A stretch of 17,484 bases of DNA from Negativicutes bacterium (GCA_963665275.2 CAXXIN010000020.1:1-17484); one strand, 5' to 3'; positions 1 through 9,208 are shown, counted from the stretch's first letter. Numbers and translations: made by a program. The notes: generated from the letters alone by a model not told the origin.

Positions 1-1436
1 ATACTTCCCTTGTTGGTCAACTCGGGAAAAGATCTTCAACGCCTTGACAATATCACTTACCCGCCTCAACCCTTCTTGCGTCTCACGAAAAGTCACGTCA
101 ACGTCTTGCAGAATATAGTCGATTTTCTTCTGTTTTTCCAAAGCCAACAGTTCCTCGTTTTTTTTGTTGCAACTCGCTGTCAACAGACGCCATAACATCA
201 TGACGGAAACCGCGAAATGCAGTCAAAACTTCGACCATTCGACCCATATACTTTTGAAGCGTTTCAAAGTTACTCATCGCAAAACCCAAGGGATTATTTA
301 TTTCATGGCAACCCCAGCTGCCAATTGCCCGATTGACGCCATTTTTTCCTGGTGAATTACTTGACTTTGCGCATTCTGCAATTCACTGTAGGCTTTTTCC
401 ACCTCGGCAATTTTTCTTTTTCAGTTCCCTTGTCGCTCTTCAACTTGAATTTCCAAACCATCCAGCGTATATTGCAAGGCAGTCTCAAAAAGATGTTGCC
501 GTTTTAATAGAAAAAACAATCCCGTAGTAAATAGCAAAATCACTGTTGTAATGAGTCCTGCAGCAATATAGTAACTTTGACCCGTTGATGAAACGCTTCA
601 AAATATTCGGCTTCATCTACACCAACCAATACAATCAAAGGATAATCTTTCATCCTGCGAAAACTATAAACCGCGTAAAGCTATCCACCGCGCTTGAGGA
701 AATGAAACTTCCTTTCGCGTCCTTTGCCGCCTTGTTCATTAAAGCGCTCTTCCTGACATCCTGGCCTATTTCGCTATCTTGGCCTGATTGTCTGGCCCTC
801 ACGATCCCGTCGGTACCAACCAACGTGACCGATGCTTTTTTCCCGATGTCCAGTTCCTTGTAAAACTCCGTGAAATAGAAGGGGTCCATCGAAATAACAC
901 GACACCGCCAAAACTGCCATCCGTTATTGACCCGTCGCGTCATTTGAATCGACCATTTGCCGGATGAACGTCCCAATACGGGTTTGCTAATATATAACTG
1001 TTTGCTGTCCTTTGTCCCTATGTACGCGAAAGTGTTCCCGATCACCCAGGTAGGATGAAACAAAAGGAACTTGATTGCTGATGGCAAAATTTCCTTCCTC
1101 ATCAATCACACCCATCAGAACAAACGGCTGACTGGAAAACCGGCCTTCACTTACATACTGGGGAATATCGATGGAACGTCTTGCCTTTCATACTCGGATT
1201 TCAAGAAAAGGACAGTCTGATCTGCCCCCGTATTGTCCGTAAGGTATGCTCTTCAAAACTTCGGGCATAATTTTTTGTTTCTTTAAGCGCATTATCCATC
1301 TCCTGTTTATTTTCAGCCTCGATTTTCCAAAACACCCAACCCAGATAACGCAAACCAGAAAAACCCCAAATAAAGCTACCATATAGCCGATATTACGGAC
1401 ATTATAAATCTTTTTGCCGGAAAAGCTTGACGGCAT
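1..1436 (-). CDS. Membrane sensor histidine kinase with extracellular Cache/PDC domain (NtrB-like HisKA), 3' end outside window, broken by several frameshifts
   Basis: Fragments in order: N-terminal TM (1188-1436, GYMVALFGVFLVCVIWVG); Cache-like YISKPVLGRSSGKWSIQMTRR...SMDPFYF...VTLVGTDGIVRAR (650-1105); H-box reconstructed across a 1-nt deletion near 307 as [43 protein letters not shown] RBS upstream of the ATG at 1436. Confidence 0.85.
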
Positions 1437-1488
1437 TTTCCCACTCCCTATTGCATCTTCAAACTAATTTGATAGCATTAACTGTGTA

Positions 1489-1512
1489 TTTCGACATTGC
1501 AATCATTCACCT
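1489..1512 (-). promoter_or_regulatory. Possible sigma-H-like promoter of the histidine kinase (AGGT-N16-GAAA)
   Basis: Minus strand reads agAGGTgaatgattgcaatgtcGAAAt. It resembles the AGGA-N17-GAAW elements at 8441 and 13520 but differs in one base and in spacing. Confidence 0.3.
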
Positions 1513-1569
1513 CTTATAAAACAACAGCAGCCGGACCATTATAGGCCCGGATGCTGTTGTTTTATAAGA
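1512..1569. terminator. Intrinsic terminator hairpin after the B3/4 gene (possibly bidirectional)
   Basis: Perfect 18-bp inverted repeat TCTTATAAAACAACAGCA (1512-1529) / TGCTGTTGTTTTATAAGA (1552-1569) with further CCGG/CCGG pairing inside, about 37 nt past the stop at 1606. Confidence 0.8.
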
Positions 1570-1605
1570 ACATCAGCAACATCACTATTATTATTGATTT
1601 CACAT

Positions 1606-2309
1606 TCAAAATTCCATCATGGTAACTTCCCTGTTCACCAGGCCGACTTTGATTTCGCAGCCAAAAAAGCGCGCAAGCAGCTCCGCCAACTCGTCACGCG
1701 CTGCGATCACGCGATCCAGATTATCATCAGCAAATCCATCAATCGGGAAAAAGATGTTCCGGCTGGGCTCCGCAACCTTGCCTTCCTCGCTCTGTCGCCA
1801 TATCCAACGCCGGGTCTTCCACCCGATCACCTGCGGAATAAATTAATTCGCCAGCTTCCAATATTTCCGCCTGGATTTCGCCAAACGGCGTAAACTGATC
1901 CCCCTGACGGGAAAACCGCACCCTGATATCGCCGCCGGCAGCATCGATATCATGGGCGCCCATTGGCAATAAATACTTCAACGACATCGCATTACCAAGA
2001 TCAACGACCGGATTGATTGACGGAAACCCTTTTTTCTTTTCAATTCGCGAGGCCATTGCCTCAATCGAACTCATAAACTTGTTGGGGTTGATCCCCAATT
2101 TCAAAAAGGCTTCCCGATAGGGAGCAATCTCGACCGATTCTTTTGCCTTCAATAAAGCAAACTTTTCTTCCACTGCCGCAATGCTCTGCTGCAGTAATGC
2201 TGCCGGGCGGTCTTCAGCAACCCTGTTGTCAATTCCCCGCGCCACCACCACGCCCAAAACAGGCCGTCGGCAATGTCGCAAACACTTTATCCTCGACAAT
2301 AAACCTCAT
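1606..2309 (-). CDS. Standalone B3/4-domain protein (PheRS-beta editing-domain homologue), two frameshifts
   Basis: Reconstructed MRFIVEDKVFATLPTACFGVVVARGIDN...YREAFLKLGINPNKFMSSIEAM...PSINPVVDLGNAMSLKYLLPMGAHD...GELIY..DRVKTRRWIWRQSEEGK. The SIEA, INPxVD.N..SL and RRWxWRQ motifs are typical of B3/4 proteins. AAGGAG RBS before ATG at 2309; extra G near 2255 and 1820. Confidence 0.88.
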
Positions 2310-2361
2310 ACTTTCTCCTTCCATTCTACCCTACTACCGATTTCAATATTTCGCAGAAAAA

Positions 2362-2946
2362 TTACTGTTCCAGCGCGGCAATCCCGGCCCGGAACGCTTC
2401 GAGATTGAGCTTGAGCGTTTCCGGCTTGAACGTTTGCCCGCAATCTCCGTTTCAAAATCCAGGTGGGTCAGATTCATTCCCTTGACCAAGGCGCCGAACA
2501 GAACCAAATTCATCGTACGGGCATTACCGATTCTATTGGCAATTTCACTTGCCTGAATCACTGTCGTATTCACTTTCGTCCTCAGCGTCTCCAGAACTTT
2601 GTCCGGGTAATCACACGCACCGATCAGGATCGGGCCGGACGGAATCTGGTAATCATTGACGACAATTTTACCGCCCGGTTTGAGATATTCCAGCCAACGC
2701 ATCGCTTCCATCATTTCAAATGCAACCAGAATATCGGCCTGTCCCTTGCCGATGATCGGCGAAAATACCTTATCGCCAAAACGGACCTGGTTGCTGACCG
2801 CTGCCGCCTCGCTGGGCCATCCCGTGGACTTCCGACATTTTGACGTCATAGCCCGCCGCCATAAGGCCCATCGAAAGAATTTTACCGGCTAAAATAGTGC
2901 CTTGTCCACCTACGCCGACCATCAATATGCTTTTGACGTCTGCCAT
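2362..2946 (-). CDS. iorB: Indolepyruvate:ferredoxin oxidoreductase subunit beta (frameshifted)
   Basis: MADVKSILMVGVGGQGTILAGKIL...SEVHGMAQRGGS(V)SNQVRFG...ADILVAFE..EA.RWL...N.VLFGAL. After a second shift near 2430 the C-terminus reads KPETLKLNLEAFRAGIAALEQ* with TAA at 2362-2364. Confidence 0.92.
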
Positions 2947-2947
2947 G

Positions 2948-4730
2948 TTATTCACCCACCTTGCTGATTGCTTTTACCGGACATACTTGAAGGCAAACTT
3001 TACAGCCTACACATTGCGTGGCATCGATGGTAACTTTTTTGGTCGTTTTGTCAAAGCGCAAGGCCGGGCAACCGGATTTTATGCACATCTTGCAACCGAT
3101 ACACTTTGTCTCATCCACGCGGCAAGTGCCCTGGTAATTGCCGAACTCTGCCCGGTCAGCGTCAGAATGTTTCTTTAGCACGCATGGCCAGCGGGTGATG
3201 ATGACCGACGGCTCATCCAGCGATAGCGCCCAAGCCAGAGCTTCTTTAGATTCCTTGAGGTCTAGCGGATTTACTATGCGAACCGCGTCAATCCCTAGCG
3301 CCTTTACGATTGCCGGAATATCGGCGATTTTTGTCGGCATTCCCTGCAATGTATAGCCTGTTGCCAGGATTTTCCTGATGTCCTGTCATCCCCGTAATCC
3401 GATTGTCCATGATGCAAGTAACAGTATTGCTGCGATTATACGCTACATGCAGCAAGCTGGTCATTCCTGAGTGAAAGAAAGTTGAATCACCGATTACCGC
3501 AACGACTTTTGTCTCTTCCCCTGTCCTGTTGAGGATCTGTTGAGCGCCATGGCCCATGCTGACACTGGCCCCCATACAGATACAAGTGTCTTTCGCGTTC
3601 AACGGTTCATTGCCACCTAGTGAATAACAACCGATATCACCGGTAATCATTAGGTTCTTGATTTTGCTCAGTTCATAGAAAAAACCTCGATGCGGACAAC
3701 CGGCGCAAAGTAGCGGCGGACGACCAACCACTTGCGACGGATCGCCTTCCACGCAGGGAATTGTTTCACCTCGCAACGTTTTTGCAATGATAATCCGGCG
3801 TCAATTCACCTATCGTCGGAACTTTTTCTTTGCCGATGCAGGCAATCCCGGCTGCTTTCATTTGTTCTTCCAGATAAGGCTCCAATTCTTCCACAACATA
3901 AAGAGTTCCCACTGCGGCGGCAAAGGCCCTGATTTTTTCGATCGGCAACGGATAGGTAAAGCCCAGTTTCAGATAGGATGCGTCGGGACCGAATACTTCC
4001 TGCGCATATTGATAGCCGATTTCCCGAAGTAACGATACCGATTTTCCTGTCGTTCCACTCGATGCGGTTCAAGTCTGTCAGTTCAGCGAAAATCGCCAGC
4101 TTCCGCAGCCGTTCCTCAACTACTACTCGTCGTTTGCGGGCAGTCGCCGGCACAAGATCATATTTCTGTATGTCCCGGGCATAAGGTTTTTTTGCCGTTT
4201 CCTCGCGACAGCCCAACTCCACGATACTCTTGCTGTGGCAAATCCGGGTCGTAATCCGCATTATTACCGGTGTGTCAAACTGTTCACTGATTTCCAGCGC
4301 AATCTTGACCATATCTTTGGCTTCCTGACTGTCACTTGGCTCGACCATCGCTATTTTAGCAAACTTTGCATAGTGACGGTTATCCTGCTCGTTCTGGGAA
4401 GAATGGCAGCCCGGATCGTCGGCGCTGACCAGAATCATTCCGCCATTCACGCCCGAATAGGCAAAACTGAACAAGGGGTCTGCAGCGACATTAACCCCGA
4501 CCATCTTCATCGCCGCTAAAGACACGGGCGCCAATCACGGAAGCGCCGATGGCGGCTTCCAGCGCAACCTTTTCATTTGGGGCCCACTCGGCAATGATGT
4601 CGCCCTTATATTCCGCGATATTCTCCAATATTTCGGTACTCGGTGTCCCCGGGTAGGCGCAGGCAAACATTACGCCGGCCTCCCATGCGCCTTGGGCAAT
4701 AGCTTCGTTTCCCGTCAATAACTTCTTCAT
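2948..4730 (-). CDS. iorA: Indolepyruvate:ferredoxin oxidoreductase subunit alpha (four frameshifts)
   Basis: [20 protein letters not shown]...YPGTPSTEI...NEKVALE; [16 protein letters not shown]; [12 protein letters not shown]; GDIGCY; TPP motif [10 protein letters not shown]...[14 protein letters not shown]; C-terminal 2x[4Fe-4S] CIGCKMC...CP and [12 protein letters not shown]. Extra bases near 4519, 4021, 3792 and 3361 explain the breaks. Confidence 0.95.
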
Positions 4731-4780
4731 CTCTCCGGACCTCCGCTTTTGTTCAATTTTCTGCAGCTATATTCCGTCAT

Positions 4781-5698
4781 TTACGTTCGATTGGCTGAAG
4801 CTATACAGCAAGCCAATGCAATCGAGTTCAGCTTAGCTTCGGCGGTATCGGCCCGCGACACCATCACCACGGGATGGGTTGCCCCCAGAATCACGCCGGC
4901 GCTCTTAAATTTTCCATAATGAATCAATGATTTTCCCAAGATATTGCCAGCCGCGATATCCGGCACCAGAAACAGATCCACCTGGCCGGAAATCTGCGAC
5001 GACAGGTTTTTGTGGGCTGCCGCCGACGGGCTGAGCGCAACATCCATGGCAATCGGTCCTTCGACCACCGCCGCCGGCAACTCGCCGCGGCGGCTCATTT
5101 CCGCCAAAGCCTGGGCATCCACCGTCACCGGCATTTTGGGATTGACTACCTCATTGGCCGCCAGGATTGCCACATTGGGTTTTGCGATACCCAATGCATG
5201 CAATGCCAACACGGCATTGATCAGGATCTCTTTCTTCCCGGCCAGATCCGGGGCAATGTTCATGCCTCCGTCGGTATGATAGGTTAATTTCTCGCCGTTC
5301 GGTTCCTCGAAGGCGGCGAAGTGACTGAGCAGTCGCCCCGTCCGTAGTCCGCATTCACTATGGAGCACCGCTCGCAGAAATTCGCTGCTGTTCACCAGGC
5401 CTTTAACCAATATGCCTGACTCCGTTTCACGGACAATGGCTACAGCGGTCAAGGCCGCCTTGGCCGGTTCGGCTTCATGCACGATTTTTGTCCCAACAGG
5501 CAGCCCTACCACCGCCAGCATCGGTTGAATCAGCGCGCTGTCGCCAACCAGAACCGCTTCGGCCAGTCCGGCATCATGCGCGGCTTTCACCGCCCGCAAA
5601 GCTTCTTCATCCTGCGCCGCCGCAACAACCAGTCGCACCGGCCCATTTCGTTTCGCGCGTTCGATCACTTCAGAAAAATGACGCAACATATCGGTCAT
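4781..5698 (-). CDS. ptb: Phosphate butyryltransferase / branched-chain phosphotransacylase (PTA_PTB family)
   Basis: Intact 305 aa ORF: VVAAAQD..AL.AV, LVKGLVNS..FLRAVL, LRTGRLLSH, TDGGMNIAPD, VEGPIAMDVA, LVPDIAAGNILGKS, PVVMVSRAD. Adjacent to buk. The start may instead be the ATG at 5689. Confidence 0.9.
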   Translation of the reverse strand: MTDMLRHFSEVIERAKRNGPVRLVVAAAQDEEALRAVKAAHDAGLAEAVLVGDSALIQPMLAVVGLPVGTKIVHEAEPAKAALTAVAIVRETESGILVKGLVNSSEFLRAVLHSECGLRTGRLLSHFAAFEEPNGEKLTYHTDGGMNIAPDLAGKKEILINAVLALHALGIAKPNVAILAANEVVNPKMPVTVDAQALAEMSRRGELPAAVVEGPIAMDVALSPSAAAHKNLSSQISGQVDLFLVPDIAAGNILGKSLIHYGKFKSAGVILGATHPVVMVSRADTAEAKLNSIALACCIASANRT

Positions 5699-5707
5699 CG
5701 ACCTCCT

Positions 5708-6773
5708 TTACACATAGTCACGGGCTGCTTCCTCGCCGCGCAGGACCCGACGAGCCCCCGCCGCCAAAGACTCCAACTCTTCTTCGCCCGGCACAATCGT
5801 CACCGGCGCGATAAAACCCACCCGATCTGCGATGTCCGCCGTAAAATAGGTCGCATAGGCCATACCGCCAGTCAATACAATCCGGTCAACTTTTCCTTTT
5901 AACACTGTCGCCAGCGAGCCGATCGATTTTGCCACTTGATAGGCAAGGGCGTCAAGCAGCAATGCCGCCTTGGCATCGCCTGCGTCGGCCATCTGCTTGA
6001 TCTGACGGATATCCTTGGTACCCAGGGTAGGCGTGTAATCCGCCGGAGCCAAACAAGCCAGCCTTCACTTCCTGTTCGCTGTATTTACCGGAATAGCAGA
6101 GCTTTACCAACTGGCTGCAGGGTACGTTGCCGCAACGGTCCGGCGCGAACGGCCCCTCGTCTTTGCCGTCTACGATGTCGATCATCCGGCCGCCCTGATG
6201 CGTCGACAGAGAAACGCCGGTACCCAGATGAGCAACCACCAGGTTGACTTCTTCATATTTCTTGCCCAGCTCCATCGCCACTTTCCGGGCTACGGCCTTC
6301 ATGTTAAGCGCATGGGTCATACTGATCCGCTCAAACCAGGGGGAACCGGAAATGCGGGCGACCGGCTCCAGTTCATCGACGGATACGGGATCAACGATAA
6401 AAGCGGGAATCGCCAATTCTTGCCCCAATTTATAGGCGATAACCGAACCCAGGTTGGAAGCGTGCTCGCCCCGCTCCGCTTTTTCCATCTCTTGCACCAT
6501 GGGTTCAGTCACCTGATAAGTTCCGCCGGCCAGCGGTTTCATCAACCCACCGCGGCCGACCACCGCATCAAGGGAAGACAATTCAATCCCGGCCTCGGCC
6601 AGCTCACATCTTAACAATTCGATCCGATAAGGATATTGGTCAAACACGCGGGTATATGATTTCAGTTCAGCTCCATGATGTTCCACCGTCTTTTTAATCA
6701 GTACGGTTTCGCCTTCGAATACGGCGAATTTTGTTGAAGTTGCCCCCGGGTTGACTGCCAGTATCCTTTCCAC
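5708..6773 (-). CDS. buk: Butyrate / branched-chain carboxylate kinase (one frameshift near 6026)
   Basis: ILAVNPGATSTKFAVF, VVGRGGLMKP, HASNLG, FIVDPVSVDE, HALNMKAVAR, VAHLGTGVS, GPFAPDRCG, then (AY)LGTKD...YQVAKSIG...IVLTGGMAY...PGEEELESLA. Likely start is GTG at 6773, preceded by GAGGAGG. Confidence 0.95.
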
Positions 6774-6823
6774 TGCCTTCCTCCTCATTACTCAGGCGAA
6801 TGCTACGCCTCATACTATGTATA

Positions 6824-6854
6824 ACAATAAACCCTCCAGTAACAGGAGAGTCAA
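6824..6854 (-). promoter_or_regulatory. MerR-family promoter/operator upstream of buk: -35 TTGACT, 19-bp spacer, -10 TATTGT, with dyad ACCCTCCAGT-A-ACAGGAGAGT
   Basis: Minus strand TTGACTctcctgttactggagggttTATTGT: -35 at 6849-6854, -10 at 6824-6829, spacer 6830-6848 is 19 nt. The 21-bp imperfect palindrome at 6831-6851 has 8/10 matching arm positions. A MerR gene lies immediately upstream. Confidence 0.85.
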
Positions 6855-6913
6855 TATTTAATACATTATACTTATTCGTGATCACTCACGAGAATTGCCT
6901 CAATAGGAATCTG

Positions 6914-6960
6914 AAAAAAAGACAGCCTCAACATCGGATTTTACTCAATGTCGGGACTGC
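6914..6960 (-). terminator. Intrinsic terminator of the MerR gene
   Basis: Minus-strand RNA GCAGUCCCGACAUUG...CGAUGUUGAGGCUGU forms an approximately 15-bp stem (with GU pairs) followed by C-U7. Confidence 0.75.
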
Positions 6961-6998
6961 TTGTTATCTGAACGATACAACTTGATTAAGCAGGTTGA

Positions 6999-7823
6999 TT
7001 AAGCAGGATGAACCGGGATTTGAATTTCGGTCAGGAAACGTTGATTGTCCCGGGAAATAAATTCATCCACAATCGCCCGTTCTAACGCCTCGCCGGCGAT
7101 AGAGCAGCCCTGGCTGGCAACAAAATCCAGCAATGCCCGGTAATGAGCCGGCGAATCCCCGTGCAAACCCCTAAATAACAGGCAGGCATATTCTCCAGCC
7201 GGCACGGCAACCGACAGTTCGGTGTCATCAGTGGAATCCTCCACCAAAATAAATACCGAGCTATACTCCTGAAAATTGCCCAGTTGCAAATTTTCTTCCG
7301 ATACCGTAAGCCCGACCTTGCCGATAAAAATCGGCGACTGCCTGGCGCCAATTAGTTTTTCCAGTTTTCGGACCGACATTTCCAGGCTCGGACCACTCTG
7401 GACACTTTCCTGCAACCGTAATACCTGACGTTCCGGAAAAAACCGGATCTCCGCTACTTCAGTCCGCGTTCCCGACAGGACTTCCTTTAATTCATCGATC
7501 CGGCTGCCAAATTTGCGTCGGGTCATTTCCAGTTCGTGAATTTTTTCATTGATCGAAGCTTCCTGACGTTGCAGCAGATGCAAAAAATATTCCACCCGAC
7601 GGTGGGTGAAATGCGCCTTAATTTCACTCAAAGGAACGCCAAGCAATCGCAAATACTTGATAATGTCCAACTGCTCGAACTGCTCGGTTGAATAGTAACG
7701 GTAACCGGTGTGGCGGTTGACCTCTCCCGGCTTGAACAAGCCGATTTCATCGTAGTAGCGGAGGGTTTTGACTGGAATATTCATCAGTTTGGACATTTCG
7801 CCGATGGAAAATCTATTTTGCAT
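6999..7823 (-). CDS. MerR-family transcriptional regulator with C-terminal GyrI-like ligand-binding domain (BmrR/BltR-type)
   Basis: FSIGEMSKLMNIPVKTLRYYDEIGLFKP...TGYRYYS HTH, a coiled-coil linker, then PAGEYACLLFRG...GEALER...TEIQIPV GyrI-like domain; 274 aa. Confidence 0.92.
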   Translation of the reverse strand: MQNRFSIGEMSKLMNIPVKTLRYYDEIGLFKPGEVNRHTGYRYYSTEQFEQLDIIKYLRLLGVPLSEIKAHFTHRRVEYFLHLLQRQEASINEKIHELEMTRRKFGSRIDELKEVLSGTRTEVAEIRFFPERQVLRLQESVQSGPSLEMSVRKLEKLIGARQSPIFIGKVGLTVSEENLQLGNFQEYSSVFILVEDSTDDTELSVAVPAGEYACLLFRGLHGDSPAHYRALLDFVASQGCSIAGEALERAIVDEFISRDNQRFLTEIQIPVHPA

Positions 7824-7851
7824 GATTTCTCCGTCTCTCCTTGACTAATAA

Positions 7852-7892
7852 GCCCCCTGCAAGTTCCTCGCAATAAGAAACACACAGGGGGC
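7852..7892 (-). terminator. Possible terminator after bfr
   Basis: GCCCCCTG...CAGGGGGC 8-bp stem with an interior that can pair partly; only a weak U-tract (UUAUU) follows. Confidence 0.45.
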
Positions 7893-7916
7893 CTGTACCT
7901 AAAGGAAAGTCTCCGC

Positions 7917-8384
7917 TTAGTCAACTTTGGTTGTTAAATAAATACCCAATGTCATGTGACCAATCTGGTCCTGGTTCTCTTCGATCGCATCGATGTGGAC
8001 GTCTTCGTCATGCAGAATATGCTCCAAAATTTCACGGGTAGCATAATCCTTGACGTCACCGGCGAGCATAATCGCCTCATTATAAGCGGCAATCGCGCCC
8101 GCTTCCGCTTCATGATCATACTGGAACATTTTCGGCACATCGCTGCCAATATGAATCGGGTTCAGTTTGTTTACGATAGGAGTGCCTTCCAGGAACAGAA
8201 TCCGGGCGATCAATTTGGCGGTATGCTTCATTTCGTCAATGGCCCGTTTTTCAAAATGATCGTGCAGTTTTCCATAGCCCCAGTTTTCACACATCTCAGC
8301 ATGTACGATATACTGGTTGATTGCCGCCAATTCATCCGCGAGCAGTGCATTAAGAGTCTCAATCAGTTTCGGATTTCCTTTCAT
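7917..8384 (-). CDS. bfr: Bacterioferritin
   Basis: MKGNPKLIETLNALLADELAAINQY...IDEMKH...RILFLEG.P...E...DEDVHID. Ferroxidase ligands (E18, E51, H54, E94, E127, H130) and the heme Met52 are present. Confidence 0.93.
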   Translation of the reverse strand: MKGNPKLIETLNALLADELAAINQYIVHAEMCENWGYGKLHDHFEKRAIDEMKHTAKLIARILFLEGTPIVNKLNPIHIGSDVPKMFQYDHEAEAGAIAAYNEAIMLAGDVKDYATREILEHILHDEDVHIDAIEENQDQIGHMTLGIYLTTKVD

Positions 8385-8440
8385 TTCTACCTAACCCCTT
8401 TCGCATCATTTTCCGGCTGTCACAGCCTTATTGTTATGTT

Positions 8441-8465
8441 ATTCGACAACAGGCATAATAATCCT
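8441..8465 (-). promoter_or_regulatory. Sigma-H-like promoter of bfr (AGGA-N17-GAAT)
   Basis: Minus strand aaAGGAttattatgcctgttgtcGAAT matches the Firmicute SigH consensus with 17-nt spacing, about 57 nt upstream of the bfr ATG. Confidence 0.55.
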
Positions 8466-8467
8466 TT

Positions 8468-9208
8468 TCAGCGGGAAGGCAATTTCCCCGTGACCGCCGC
8501 GTAGACAGCAAAGTGGTTTTCGCCATCGACGCCAAGCAGGCTGTTCACCTTCGCATCATCGAATGCCGCAATAGCGCAGACGCCGCACTCCAGCGGCGCC
8601 GCCGCCAGATAAAGGTTCTGGCAGACATGGCCCGCATCCAAAAATACATATCGCCAGGCCCGTTCGCTATAGCGCCAGGCACTGCGATACACGTCCGCCA
8701 CCCAAAAGAAAGTGACCGCTGCCGTGGTTACCATATCTTGCCCCAAGCAGGCTTCCTGCAATAATGGGCCAATTTTCGCATCCATCCGCACTTGCCCCAC
8801 CGCATGCTCCAAGGCAATATAACGGTACAATCCGGCATTCAAGCCTTTGACCCGGTTGACCAGCACATAGGTATCCAAAGGATGCCTGGCCCCGGCCGAC
8901 GGAACCGTCCGAATCGTCGATGGCGGAATGACTTGTTGTACCCCCTGTGTACACCAGAGTAACCAGGATAATTCCTCGATACTCAGCGGAGCATGGGAAA
9001 ACCGACGGATGCTGCGCCGCCCGGTAAGAGTATTTTCCAGCAGGATCGTTCCCGTTTTTTGCTGAACCGGCTTGAGCAGGTGCATCACCGGACCGCTACC
9101 GGCATAGGGCGTTTCCAGTTCGGGCGCGACAATTCCCTGGCTCTGGTCAGAAGGGGTTAGGTGTTCATAGTGCGTCAGACGAATAAAATCCTTGCCTGTA
9201 TCTTTCAT
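8468..9208 (-). CDS. SagB/ThcOx-like nitroreductase-family flavoprotein
   Basis: RRSIRRF, LSWLLWCTQG, RTVPSAGARHPLDTY, RY..RAWRYVFLDAGHVCQNLYLAA, GVCAIAAFDD; AAGGAG RBS. Confidence 0.9.
   Translation of the reverse strand: MKDTGKDFIRLTHYEHLTPSDQSQGIVAPELETPYAGSGPVMHLLKPVQQKTGTILLENTLTGRRSIRRFSHAPLSIEELSWLLWCTQGVQQVIPPSTIRTVPSAGARHPLDTYVLVNRVKGLNAGLYRYIALEHAVGQVRMDAKIGPLLQEACLGQDMVTTAAVTFFWVADVYRSAWRYSERAWRYVFLDAGHVCQNLYLAAAPLECGVCAIAAFDDAKVNSLLGVDGENHFAVYAAVTGKLPSR

Follow-up and report, generated by a model that had tools for sequence, protein, structure and literature searches.

A Sporomusaceae operon that may pair aryl-2-oxoacid fermentation with a CtdA-fold B3/4 protein under a BmrR-like sensor

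Gene content, layout and integrity of the locus

The DNA analysed here (the window) is the entire 17,484-bp contig CAXXIN010000020.1 (C20) of a Negativicutes bacterium (GCA_963665275.2), one of 20 contigs in a 3.97-Mb assembly (G000). It carries a five-gene operon, buk-ptb-iorA-iorB-B3/4, behind the gene of a BmrR-like regulator. An earlier note had proposed that this locus degrades an amino acid and also removes it from mischarged tRNA. The locus was compared with same-genus genomes (G007, G002, G010 and G011), two further congeners (G005 and G009) and a genome of the sister genus (G012).

As shown in Table 1, the five genes are co-oriented on the minus strand (6773-1606). The Pfam calls along the operon were Acetate_kinase, PTA_PTB, POR_N/TPP_enzyme_C/Fer4, POR and B3_4, which bore out the gene identities given in the earlier note. 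The matches consisted of Acetate_kinase-family pieces at 5952-6788 and 5708-6052, four POR_N, TPP_enzyme_C and Fer4 pieces spanning 4730-2948, a POR piece at 2343-2849 and a B3_4 piece at 1739-2299. The short gaps it had described also held. Read from the sequence, 9 nt separate the buk stop (5708) from the ptb start (5698), 50 nt separate the ptb stop (4781) from the iorA start (4730), the iorA and iorB reading frames overlap by 8 nt, and 52 nt lie between the iorB stop (2362) and the B3/4 ATG (2309). The terminator scan listed no terminator-like site at the iorB-B3/4 junction, and the strong hairpin that the earlier note placed only behind B3/4 was found there, also as an inverted repeat. 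The simple scan itself overlooked this hairpin (1569-1512) and called the operator palindrome (6852-6830) terminator-like, and both sites were reassessed by folding and alignment. An aminotransferase gene is absent from the operon. The layout fits a predicted single transcription unit under a ligand-sensing MerR/GyrI regulator.

Table 1. Features of the operon region in the window, with the inserted membrane-protein gene of related loci
Feature	Position	Strand	Remarks
BmrR-like MerR/GyrI-like regulator, 274 aa (amino acids), intact	6999-7823	-	Pfam MerR_1 62.8 bits, GyrI-like 38.6 bits
Hairpin and U-run after the regulator gene, possible merR terminator	6913-6962	-	-18.7 kcal/mol, z -2.7, 4/200 shuffles equal; then TCTTTTTTT
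MerR-type promoter/operator (predicted)	6824-6854	-	TTGACT, 19-nt spacer with palindrome CTCCTGT-T-ACTGGAG, then TATTGT
buk, butyrate-kinase-family acyl kinase, probable arylacetate kinase	5708-6773	-	one inserted base near 6025; GTG 6773 behind AGGAGG
ptb, phosphate acyltransferase, 305 aa, intact	4781-5698	-	Pfam PTA_PTB 149.3 bits; 95% identical to G007
iorA, indolepyruvate:ferredoxin oxidoreductase (IOR) alpha	2948-4730	-	four inserted bases near 4523, 4020, 3788-3792, 3361
iorB, IOR beta subunit	2362-2955	-	three inserted bases near 2799, 2439, 2430; Pfam POR 66.7 bits; TAA stop 2364-2362
Standalone B3/4, Thr-type CtdA-like putative aminoacyl-tRNA deacylase	1606-2309	-	two inserted bases near 2255, 1820; ATG 2309 behind GGAAGGAG ribosome-binding site
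Strong terminator-like hairpin closing the operon	1512-1569	-	26-pair stem, -44.5 kcal/mol, z -7.6, 0/200 shuffles equal
Membrane-protein gene, G007	L015 11127-11756		between ptb and iorA
Membrane-protein gene, contig C7 of G000	L001 6645-7274		between ptb and iorA
Membrane-protein gene, G027	L233 6039-6632		directly before iorA; another family

The order MerR-buk-ptb-(membrane protein)-iorA-iorB-B3/4 was intact in all four same-genus loci with enough flank (G007, G002, G011 and G010; buk and ptb of G002 were detected by tblastn), and since it recurs in this way, it is not a product of chance. An iorB-B3/4 pair was also found on a 2.4-kb contig of G012.

The catabolic enzymes were assigned by family-specific scores. 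The buk piece at 6018-6767 reached 342 bits against TIGR02707 (cut-off 289.1) and the G007 ortholog, to which buk is 88-92% identical in two frames, reached 494.2 bits, placing Buk in the butyrate-kinase family. The G007 Ptb scored 328 bits against the phosphate butyryltransferase equivalog TIGR02706, below its cut-off of 410.5, and because only the broader PTA_PTB family was matched, the enzyme is called a phosphate acyltransferase without a substrate. For iorA, five tblastn pieces covered residues 1-592 of G007 IorA at 73-94% identity. The intact G007 protein, 87% identical to C20 in aa sequence, scored 701.7 bits against TIGR03336 (cut-off 650.9), and the pieces in the window gave 215.9, 164.5, 106.8, 78.7 and 53.0 bits, low values that follow from the broken frame. 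The G007 IorB (89% aa identity to C20) scored 268 bits against NF005325 (cut-off 230). The only IOR alpha genes in the assembly are this copy and one on contig C7. As to the chemistry, the accessible text of PMC13285125 (cited beside PMC12873857) describes IOR as oxidising arylpyruvates to arylacetyl-CoA, from which a phosphate acyltransferase and a kinase yield arylacetate and ATP; the kinase next to the IOR of C. difficile is reported there to favour phenylacetate and 4-hydroxyphenylacetate.

As deposited, ptb is the only one of the five genes in an unbroken frame, and buk is split into 2 pieces, iorA into 5, iorB into 3 and B3/4 into 3. The earlier note was silent on this point; the genes it named are real, but four of them are broken by ten insertions. 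Intact G007 proteins cover every residue of Buk, IorA, IorB and B3/4 in frame-shifted pieces (tblastn), and DNA alignment with the G007 ortholog located the single-base insertions near 6025, 4523, 4020, 3788, 3361, 2799, 2439, 2430, 2255 and 1820. Every frame break in the operon is a 1-nt insertion relative to G007. Contigs of four public runs were then compared with the window. Among the 12 of 48 indel differences listed, one letter was omitted in public contigs at 6025, 4524, 4020, 3792, 3361, 2800, 2437, 2428 and 1819. The X2 contig, from a 97-98% identical strain at depth 13.3, omits the extra letter at all nine sites, X1/X5 omit it at 6025, 4524, 3361, 2437 and 1819, and X3 at 6025, 4020, 3792 and 3361; the extra base of buk is thus absent from X1, X2 and X3. 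X1 and X5 come from one sample, probably the source sample, and their listed pieces are otherwise letter-identical to the window. When the inserted bases were ignored, no in-frame stop was left in any of six genes, and dN/dS against G007 was 0.03-0.07, equal for broken and unbroken genes. The depth of X1 on C20 was mostly about 1-5 and about 0 over 1-2332, and long open reading frames (ORFs) covered 0.30 of C20, compared with about 0.7 for most other contigs. These results indicated that C20 is almost certainly a poorly polished, low-depth contig whose genes are intact in nature, since all breaks are +1 insertions, nine of them are absent from public contigs, the frames are otherwise open and dN/dS is low. 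The gene breaks in C20 should be regarded as assembly artefacts and not taken for pseudogenes. An alternative genetic code was ruled out as a cause of the short ORFs, because the pieces change frame and share no stop codon.

It is very unlikely, in our estimate, that the breaks are real and that the C20 copy is a decaying, redundant duplicate of a C7 locus. Such decay would suit the presence of two collinear copies in the assembly (C20 1683-17301 and C7 639501-665168, loci L001 and L002, 64-76% nucleotide identity), and also the low long-ORF cover and the concentration of the breaks in 1-6800 of the contig. Two further observations weigh against an artefact: at three places the source sample has a depth of 2 with no copy lacking the extra letter (3792 in X1; 2800 and 2428 in X5), and the insertion near 2255 falls where a stretch replaced in X2 has its edge, so that X2 gives no verdict on it. 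Decay is opposed by the finding that ten of ten operon breaks are +1 insertions, with no nonsense codons and with dN/dS as given above, and five breaks are contradicted by the otherwise letter-identical contigs of the same sample and nine by the X2 strain. Over whole genes, C20 is 81-95% identical to the G007 proteins and the C7 copy 57-92%. Because the C20 proteins are the nearer to G007, C20 may come from a minor population of a congener that ended up in the bin of the main genome; it may otherwise be an acquired second locus. The C7 copy has damage of its own. Its buk, ptb and most of iorA are intact, and L001 3434-4940 (the 3' end of iorA, iorB and B3/4) differs from G010 by about a dozen 1-nt insertions. 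The C7 B3/4 match, 57% identical to G007, has 1-nt insertions and two in-frame stops (one TGA, one TAG). This 3'-end damage could be either assembly error or real decay.

Gene content between ptb and iorA varies among relatives. A gene for a membrane protein of 197-209 aa lies there in G007, G010 and the C7 copy, and was not found at this place in C20 (window 4731-4780), G011, G005 or G009; the X2 contig shows no joint at the corresponding gap of C20. The 209-aa protein matched no Pfam or NCBIfam family and scored 0.94 as Mpv17/PMP22-like, which is a lead only. It is a candidate substrate or product transporter. The absence of a transporter from the operon, as stated in the earlier note, is therefore true of the C20 copy but not of the other three. 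Downstream of the operon, window 1-1436 (minus strand) encodes a dCache/HisKA/HATPase sensor kinase, the ortholog of a 695-aa G007 protein. It is broken by many 1-2-nt deletions and insertions, and contigs of the source sample also differ here, with 5-6 gaps per piece.

A Thr-type clade of standalone B3/4 proteins

The B3/4 piece of the window scored 76.5 bits against Pfam B3_4 (PF03483, gathering cut-off 29.3), and the intact 238-aa G007 ortholog, to which it is 85% identical, scored 101 bits. A subfamily profile built from seven relatives matched the CtdA structures 9f7e (E 2e-26) and 9mkl (E 2e-23), while PheRS beta chains followed at 2e-5 and weaker. The structure 9f7e is CtdA of P. canavaninivorans, and from its residue numbering we take 9mkl to be the S. 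enterica enzyme. The AlphaFold2 (AF2) model of the G007 ortholog had a pLDDT of 94.7, and Foldseek aligned it over 228-229 columns with 9f7e (TM 0.82/0.84) and 9mkl (TM 0.84/0.88), with PheRS beta next. The model showed a standalone fold with the CtdA-specific helical insert. Against TIGR00472 (pheT_bact, cut-off 402.65) the same ortholog reached 25.5 bits.

The pocket of CtdA is formed by N105, G116, E118, C166, Q173 and I189, of which C166 is strictly conserved and modulates specificity, and N105, G116 and Q173 are required for activity, according to the accessible text of PMC12449066. We compared these positions in 77 Thr-type proteins (78 found, one dropped as too short) and in 64 Cys-type proteins obtained by a motif scan (66 ORFs in 80 loci, two dropped as too short). 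At the six positions, every one of the 77 Thr-type proteins has N, G, H, T, Q and P, and every one of the 64 Cys-type proteins has N, G, E, C and Q followed by I, L or V. How the sets were drawn fixed the C/T column; the H/E and P/aliphatic columns are independent of it. Thr-type proteins thus differ from CtdA at three of the six positions (E118 to H, C166 to T and I189 to P) and keep N, G and Q as well as the RRWxWRQ motif. In a FastTree phylogeny rooted on a third paralog type, Thr-type and Cys-type proteins were reciprocally monophyletic in the sample, with a mean identity of 26%, clade stems of 0.90 and 0.66 substitutions per site and SH-like support of 0.365 and 0.954, although this motif-drawn sampling could hide intermediates between the two. 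Members of the Thr-type clade include C. difficile, Paraclostridium, Romboutsia, Brachyspira and Synergistota.

Guanidine riboswitches have been associated with CtdA-type B3/4 genes in the accessible text of PMC10018355 and PMC11477304. Many CtdA genes, though not all, lie behind a guanidine-I or -IV riboswitch or among canavanine-metabolism genes. Rfam searches found no guanidine-I or guanidine-IV riboswitch in 11 Thr-type loci or in the window, and the sole Rfam match in the 11 loci came from C. difficile, where a yjdF/azaaromatic riboswitch that belongs to a neighbouring gene lies about 1 kb upstream. C. difficile carries PheT plus four standalone B3/4 genes (L224, L227, L230 and G041:C1:3702398-3702781). 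Its Thr-type gene has no riboswitch, whereas its Cys-type gene lies directly behind a guanidine-I riboswitch (RF00442, 86.7 bits) and is the only B3/4 paralog to do so. Where CtdA has Q173, the Cys-type protein carries Glu, a replacement also reported for C. perfringens CtdA, and a third-type B3/4 protein of the same genome is without the RRWxWRQ motif. A c-di-GMP-I riboswitch was also seen about 650 nt from the guanidine-I riboswitch, on the opposite strand. In the assembly studied here, a second standalone B3/4 paralog of 224 aa without RRWxWRQ (G000:C7:485998-486672, minus strand) adjoins a threonine-synthase-like gene; most congeners have a weaker second B3/4 match (E 1e-8 to 1e-12), probably of this 224-aa type, which may correspond to the published 'CtdA-2' group.

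From the modelled fold we infer that the Thr-type B3/4 protein acts as an aminoacyl-tRNA deacylase. Because His, Thr and Pro replace Glu118, Cys166 and Ile189 of CtdA, the mischarged aminoacyl-tRNA that it hydrolyses is most likely different from that of CtdA, and the lack of the acidic Glu118 speaks against a substrate with a cationic side chain, as in canavanine. The protein could in principle be a plain CtdA ortholog protecting against canavanine, an explanation that we regard as highly improbable. CtdA is its nearest solved relative both by sequence and by fold, and in one Thr-type locus (L041) a LysE-type exporter gene lies beside B3/4; the LysE-family protein ArgO exports canavanine in E. 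coli. Nevertheless, all 77 Thr-type proteins carry the three replacements and all 64 Cys-type proteins keep E, C and I/L/V, and the replaced residues include the specificity-modulating Cys166 (PMC12449066, accessible text). The missing guanidine riboswitches in the 11 Thr-type loci and the window, together with the separate Cys-type paralog behind such a riboswitch in C. difficile, point the same way. The comparison with CtdA drawn in the earlier note holds for the CtdA-like standalone form of the B3/4 protein, but it is not CtdA itself: half of the pocket differs, the riboswitch is missing, and the phylogeny places it in a separate sister clade.

Regulator, operator and linkage to the IOR pathway

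The regulator gene upstream of buk encodes an N-terminal MerR helix-turn-helix domain and a C-terminal GyrI-like domain, the architecture of the BmrR-like MerR family. Its closest solved relative is BmrR (residues 3-270 of 274, E 2e-24), and it is 91% identical to the G007 ortholog. Between this gene and buk lies a promoter block (6854-6824) with an over-long spacer and a dyad operator, the predicted target of the regulator, which was nearly invariant in five of five aligned relatives (C20, C7, G007, G010 and G011). MerR-family activators act on promoters with 19-20-bp spacers (PMC8113463, accessible text). The ligand sensor that the earlier note placed over the locus was in this way identified as a BmrR-like MerR/GyrI regulator with a conserved 19-nt-spacer promoter before buk. 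The operator resembles, as we assume, the bmr operator. The hairpin at 6913-6962 is a weak candidate for a merR terminator. A perfect palindrome, TCGTGA-N4-TCACGA (6875-6892, minus strand), precedes the -35 box by about 20 nt. G011 shares this palindrome, but G007, G010 and C7 do not, and it may be a second regulator site. No riboswitch was found in the window at Rfam gathering scores.

A regular expression for the operator matched 27 times, in 25 of the 89 sources, and never in 20 shuffles; as three loci were represented twice, the matches correspond to about 22 distinct loci. Each match lay immediately before buk, before B3/4, or before a transporter gene or regulator-B3/4 unit next to B3/4. 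Outside Sporomusaceae, the operator block was found 30-200 nt before B3/4 in 16 loci of Clostridium, Paraclostridium, Romboutsia, Intestinibacter, Faecalimicrobium, Lacrimispora, Propionigenium and others, and 13 of these 16 had a homologous MerR/GyrI regulator gene immediately upstream. Of the 65 scanned -1 neighbours of B3/4, 13 were of the MerR family, 12 of them with a GyrI-like domain. Two more MerR-linked loci were L041 (MerR at -2), where a variant operator lies between the regulator and a LysE-B3/4 pair, and L100 (Lacrimispora, 4248-8720), where one operator precedes an SNF-family transporter gene, and the regulator, another operator and B3/4 come after that gene. In L100 an ORF of the D-2-hydroxyacid dehydrogenase family, another 2-oxoacid enzyme adjoining a Thr-type gene, overlaps the end of B3/4, and in L051 an additional operator copy precedes an NhaC-family transporter gene. 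Bacterial SNF members transport hydrophobic and aromatic amino acids, and the transporters behind the same operator fit a role in amino-acid handling. The co-occurrence of B3/4 and MerR was thus found in the form of the same regulator/operator pair before B3/4 alone in Clostridia. Since operator and homologous regulator stand before B3/4 outside Sporomusaceae and before buk within it, one orthologous sensor/operator pair would control B3/4 in many Firmicutes and buk-ptb-iorAB-B3/4 in Sporomusaceae.

The link between B3/4 and the pathway was examined in 74 further Thr-type loci from other lineages, in which pathway genes were sought within 7 kb (the Thr-type loci represent 80 of at least 394 relatives). 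Genes of the iorAB/buk/ptb set were found near B3/4 in four of the 74. L070, from a Peptostreptococcaceae metagenome-assembled genome, has a sigma-54 activator, a perfect -24/-12 element (TGGCACGGCTCTTGC) and iorA-iorB-buk-B3/4 with a 57-nt gap before B3/4. In L066 (Pyramidobacter), a YheO-like regulator overlaps the B3/4 start and the pair is divergent from iorA-iorB-ptb. L030 has the order buk-ptb-B3/4, and in L054 buk and iorA lie about 5 kb from B3/4 on the opposite strand. Chance would give about 0.3 of 74 loci, a rough estimate that assumes one IOR per 3.5-Mb genome and 14-kb windows and has no control. Among 41 relatives, a Thr-type gene (E <= 1e-30) was always accompanied by an IOR alpha match (E <= 1e-60) in the same genome (11 of 11), and such a match occurred in 16 of the 30 others, although kin are not independent in this count. 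Scattered near Thr-type genes were BcrAD/BadFG-type activators, CoA-transferase III, sigma-54 activators and transporters, which are genes of amino-acid fermentation.

Taken together, we give about even weight to a composite explanation in which this is a ligand-inducible, naturally intact Sporomusaceae operon pairing aryl-2-oxoacid fermentation with a CtdA-fold proofreader. The BmrR-like regulator, made from its own gene, would bind a probably aromatic ligand and, by the mechanism of its family, activate the 19-nt-spacer promoter before buk. IorAB would then convert an aryl-2-oxoacid and CoA to arylacetyl-CoA, CO2 and reduced ferredoxin, the phosphate acyltransferase would turn arylacetyl-CoA into arylacetyl phosphate, and the Buk-type kinase would release arylacetate and ATP. 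The product of the last gene, a standalone CtdA-fold B3/4 protein keeping the catalytic-site Asn, Gly and Gln, would act on tRNA that wrongly carries the amino acid whose flux is under the control of the regulon, or a close analogue of it, so that proofreading capacity would increase along with uptake or catabolism.

A more specific version of this mechanism is that the BmrR-like sensor runs an 'inducible proofreading' regulon, in which a single sensor induces both the uptake or fermentative disposal of an amino acid (IorAB-Ptb-Buk) and a trans-editing deacylase specific for a neutral or aromatic residue. We hold it as tentative. The trigger would be a flood of one amino acid, most likely aromatic, or of its analogue, and the His/Thr/Pro-pocket deacylase might target, for example, Tyr or meta-tyrosine (m-Tyr) on tRNAPhe. 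For the narrower idea of the earlier note, in which a non-proteinogenic or hydroxylated aromatic amino acid serves as the substrate, the analysis gave no support.

Several findings weigh against a functional coupling of this kind. No IOR, buk or ptb gene lies within 7 kb of B3/4 in 70 of the 74 loci outside Sporomusaceae, and the remaining neighbours of Thr-type genes are heterogeneous, with no recurrent partner beyond MerR either in neighbour clustering or among 109 proteins at -2, +1 and +2. No B3/4 follows iorB in G009, and in G005 (99% complete), whose operon contig ends 86 nt past iorB, a 186-aa query found no B3/4 match genome-wide, so the pathway can do without an adjacent B3/4. The LysE exporter of L041 is more easily explained by defence against an analogue than by the overflow of an ordinary amino acid, and the predicted deacylase activity is read from the fold and from three of six shared pocket residues.

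These findings leave some room, though we find it rather unlikely, for regulatory hitch-hiking. Here an ancestral MerR-promoter-B3/4 module for stress or antimetabolite defence would have no mechanistic tie to the aryl-2-oxoacid pathway, and in Sporomusaceae buk-ptb-iorAB would have landed between promoter and B3/4, or B3/4 behind the block. MerR and operator directly before B3/4 (15 of 74 loci) are indeed far commoner than IOR linkage, iorB has no B3/4 behind it in G009 and none was found in G005, and the membrane-protein gene that comes and goes within the operon indicates that its gene content is fluid. However, B3/4 stands beside iorAB/buk/ptb under three unrelated regulators (MerR, sigma-54 activator and YheO-like), the linkage spans Negativicutes, Peptostreptococcaceae and Synergistota at a frequency above the roughly estimated chance level, and with orthologous regulators and the same operator one ligand would turn on both outputs. 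The proposal that the locus serves to 'catabolise and proofread' accordingly keeps the support of its gene set, its layout and a linkage that recurs under other regulators, and it is weakened by the operons of G009 and G005 and by the 70 loci where B3/4 stands apart from IOR.

The direction of the pathway offers a further alternative, in which the operon would work in reverse to 'salvage and proofread'. Buk and Ptb would activate environmental arylacetates, IorAB would carboxylate them to arylpyruvates, and transamination would give aromatic amino acids; substituted arylacetates would yield non-canonical aromatic amino acids, which B3/4 would remove from tRNA. Reductive carboxylation of arylacetates by IOR occurs in methanogens and rumen bacteria, the host family presumably consists of acetogen-type anaerobes rich in reduced ferredoxin, and a BmrR-type sensor of aromatic ligands would suit arylacetates. 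Every step of the trio is also reported to be thermodynamically reversible (PMC13285125, accessible text). The sequence itself gives no evidence on direction, the operon has no aminotransferase, and the L100 operator drives an SNF-family amino-acid-type transporter, which suggests uptake of amino acids rather than of arylacetates. We therefore consider salvage unlikely and retain fermentative disposal as the preferred direction.

Comparison with known systems

Standalone tRNA deacylases increasingly turn out to mark unusual amino-acid metabolism, and to our knowledge canavanine is the only substrate with a known enzyme in the CtdA/B3-4 family. The present locus points to a second, large clade, which was found in at least 77 species-level genomes and is marked by a distinct pocket signature and by a conserved sensor and operator of the BmrR type. 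Aromatic amino-acid fermentation yields phenylacetate, 4-hydroxyphenylacetate and indoleacetate in gut and sediment anaerobes, and the recurring IorAB/Buk/Ptb link suggests that translation fidelity may be managed together with this fermentation. If the inducible-proofreading idea is true, the protein would give the CtdA family its first activity beyond canavanine, and the locus would be the first example of trans-editing that a ligand induces as part of a catabolic circuit, in a module widespread in Clostridia including C. difficile. A literature search returned no publication joining 'B3 4 domain' and 'indolepyruvate', and for MerR, GyrI-like and trans-editing none among the matches listed deals with 'B3 4 domain'. 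We thus did not find the Thr-type clade, its BmrR-like regulator and operator, or the IorAB/Buk/Ptb link in print, although PMC12449066 may place the clade within its CtdA-1 or CtdA-2.

CtdA, the canavanyl-tRNAArg deacylase of the CtdA-1 clade, is the closest known protein. Like CtdA, the Thr-type protein stands alone, is about 230 aa long and has the complete CtdA fold, helical insert included; both have the equivalents of Asn105, Gly116 and Gln173 and RRWxWRQ. The two differ in that the Thr-type stands at about 26% identity in a separate sister clade, has His, Thr and Pro instead of Glu118, Cys166 and Ile189, is under MerR/GyrI control without a guanidine riboswitch, and coexists with a Cys-type CtdA in C. 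difficile. The B3/4 editing domain of PheRS beta shares PF03483, the core fold (Foldseek E 5e-10 to 4e-7, TM about 0.5-0.6 on the query) and the conserved Asn, whereas the window protein has the CtdA-type insert and a 238-aa standalone ortholog instead of being a domain in a PheT of about 790 aa. The PheRS beta domain hydrolyses Tyr- and m-Tyr-tRNAPhe. CtdA is reported to be unable to replace PheRS editing, in the accessible text of PMC12449066.

For the regulator, the closest system is BmrR of Bacillus subtilis, which has the same two-domain architecture and a similar promoter, in which 19 nt with a palindrome at their centre separate the -35 and -10 boxes. The target of BmrR is a multidrug efflux pump, while the predicted targets of the window regulator are a catabolic operon and a tRNA-deacylase-like gene. 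For the enzymes, the same three families are adjacent in HpdDEFG/HpdJ/HpdK of C. scatologenes and in the IOR-linked kinase cluster of C. difficile, and the window IorA has fused E and F subunits as in 'cluster 2' (PMC13285125, accessible text). The window trio differs from these oxoacid:ferredoxin oxidoreductase (OFOR) trios by its MerR/GyrI sensor control and its terminal B3/4 gene.

The CtdA gene, as we understand it, sits with the canavanine-utilisation genes of P. canavaninivorans. Pathways paired with a trans-editing factor are also known from biosynthetic clusters, which contain the AlaX-type BesG and FthB (PMC13149037, accessible text). The window shares with the BesG, FthB and CtdA pairings the combination of a pathway with trans-editing, and differs from them in its deacylase subfamily, in the ATP-yielding fermentation to which that deacylase would be coupled, and in the predicted induction of both by a shared sensor.

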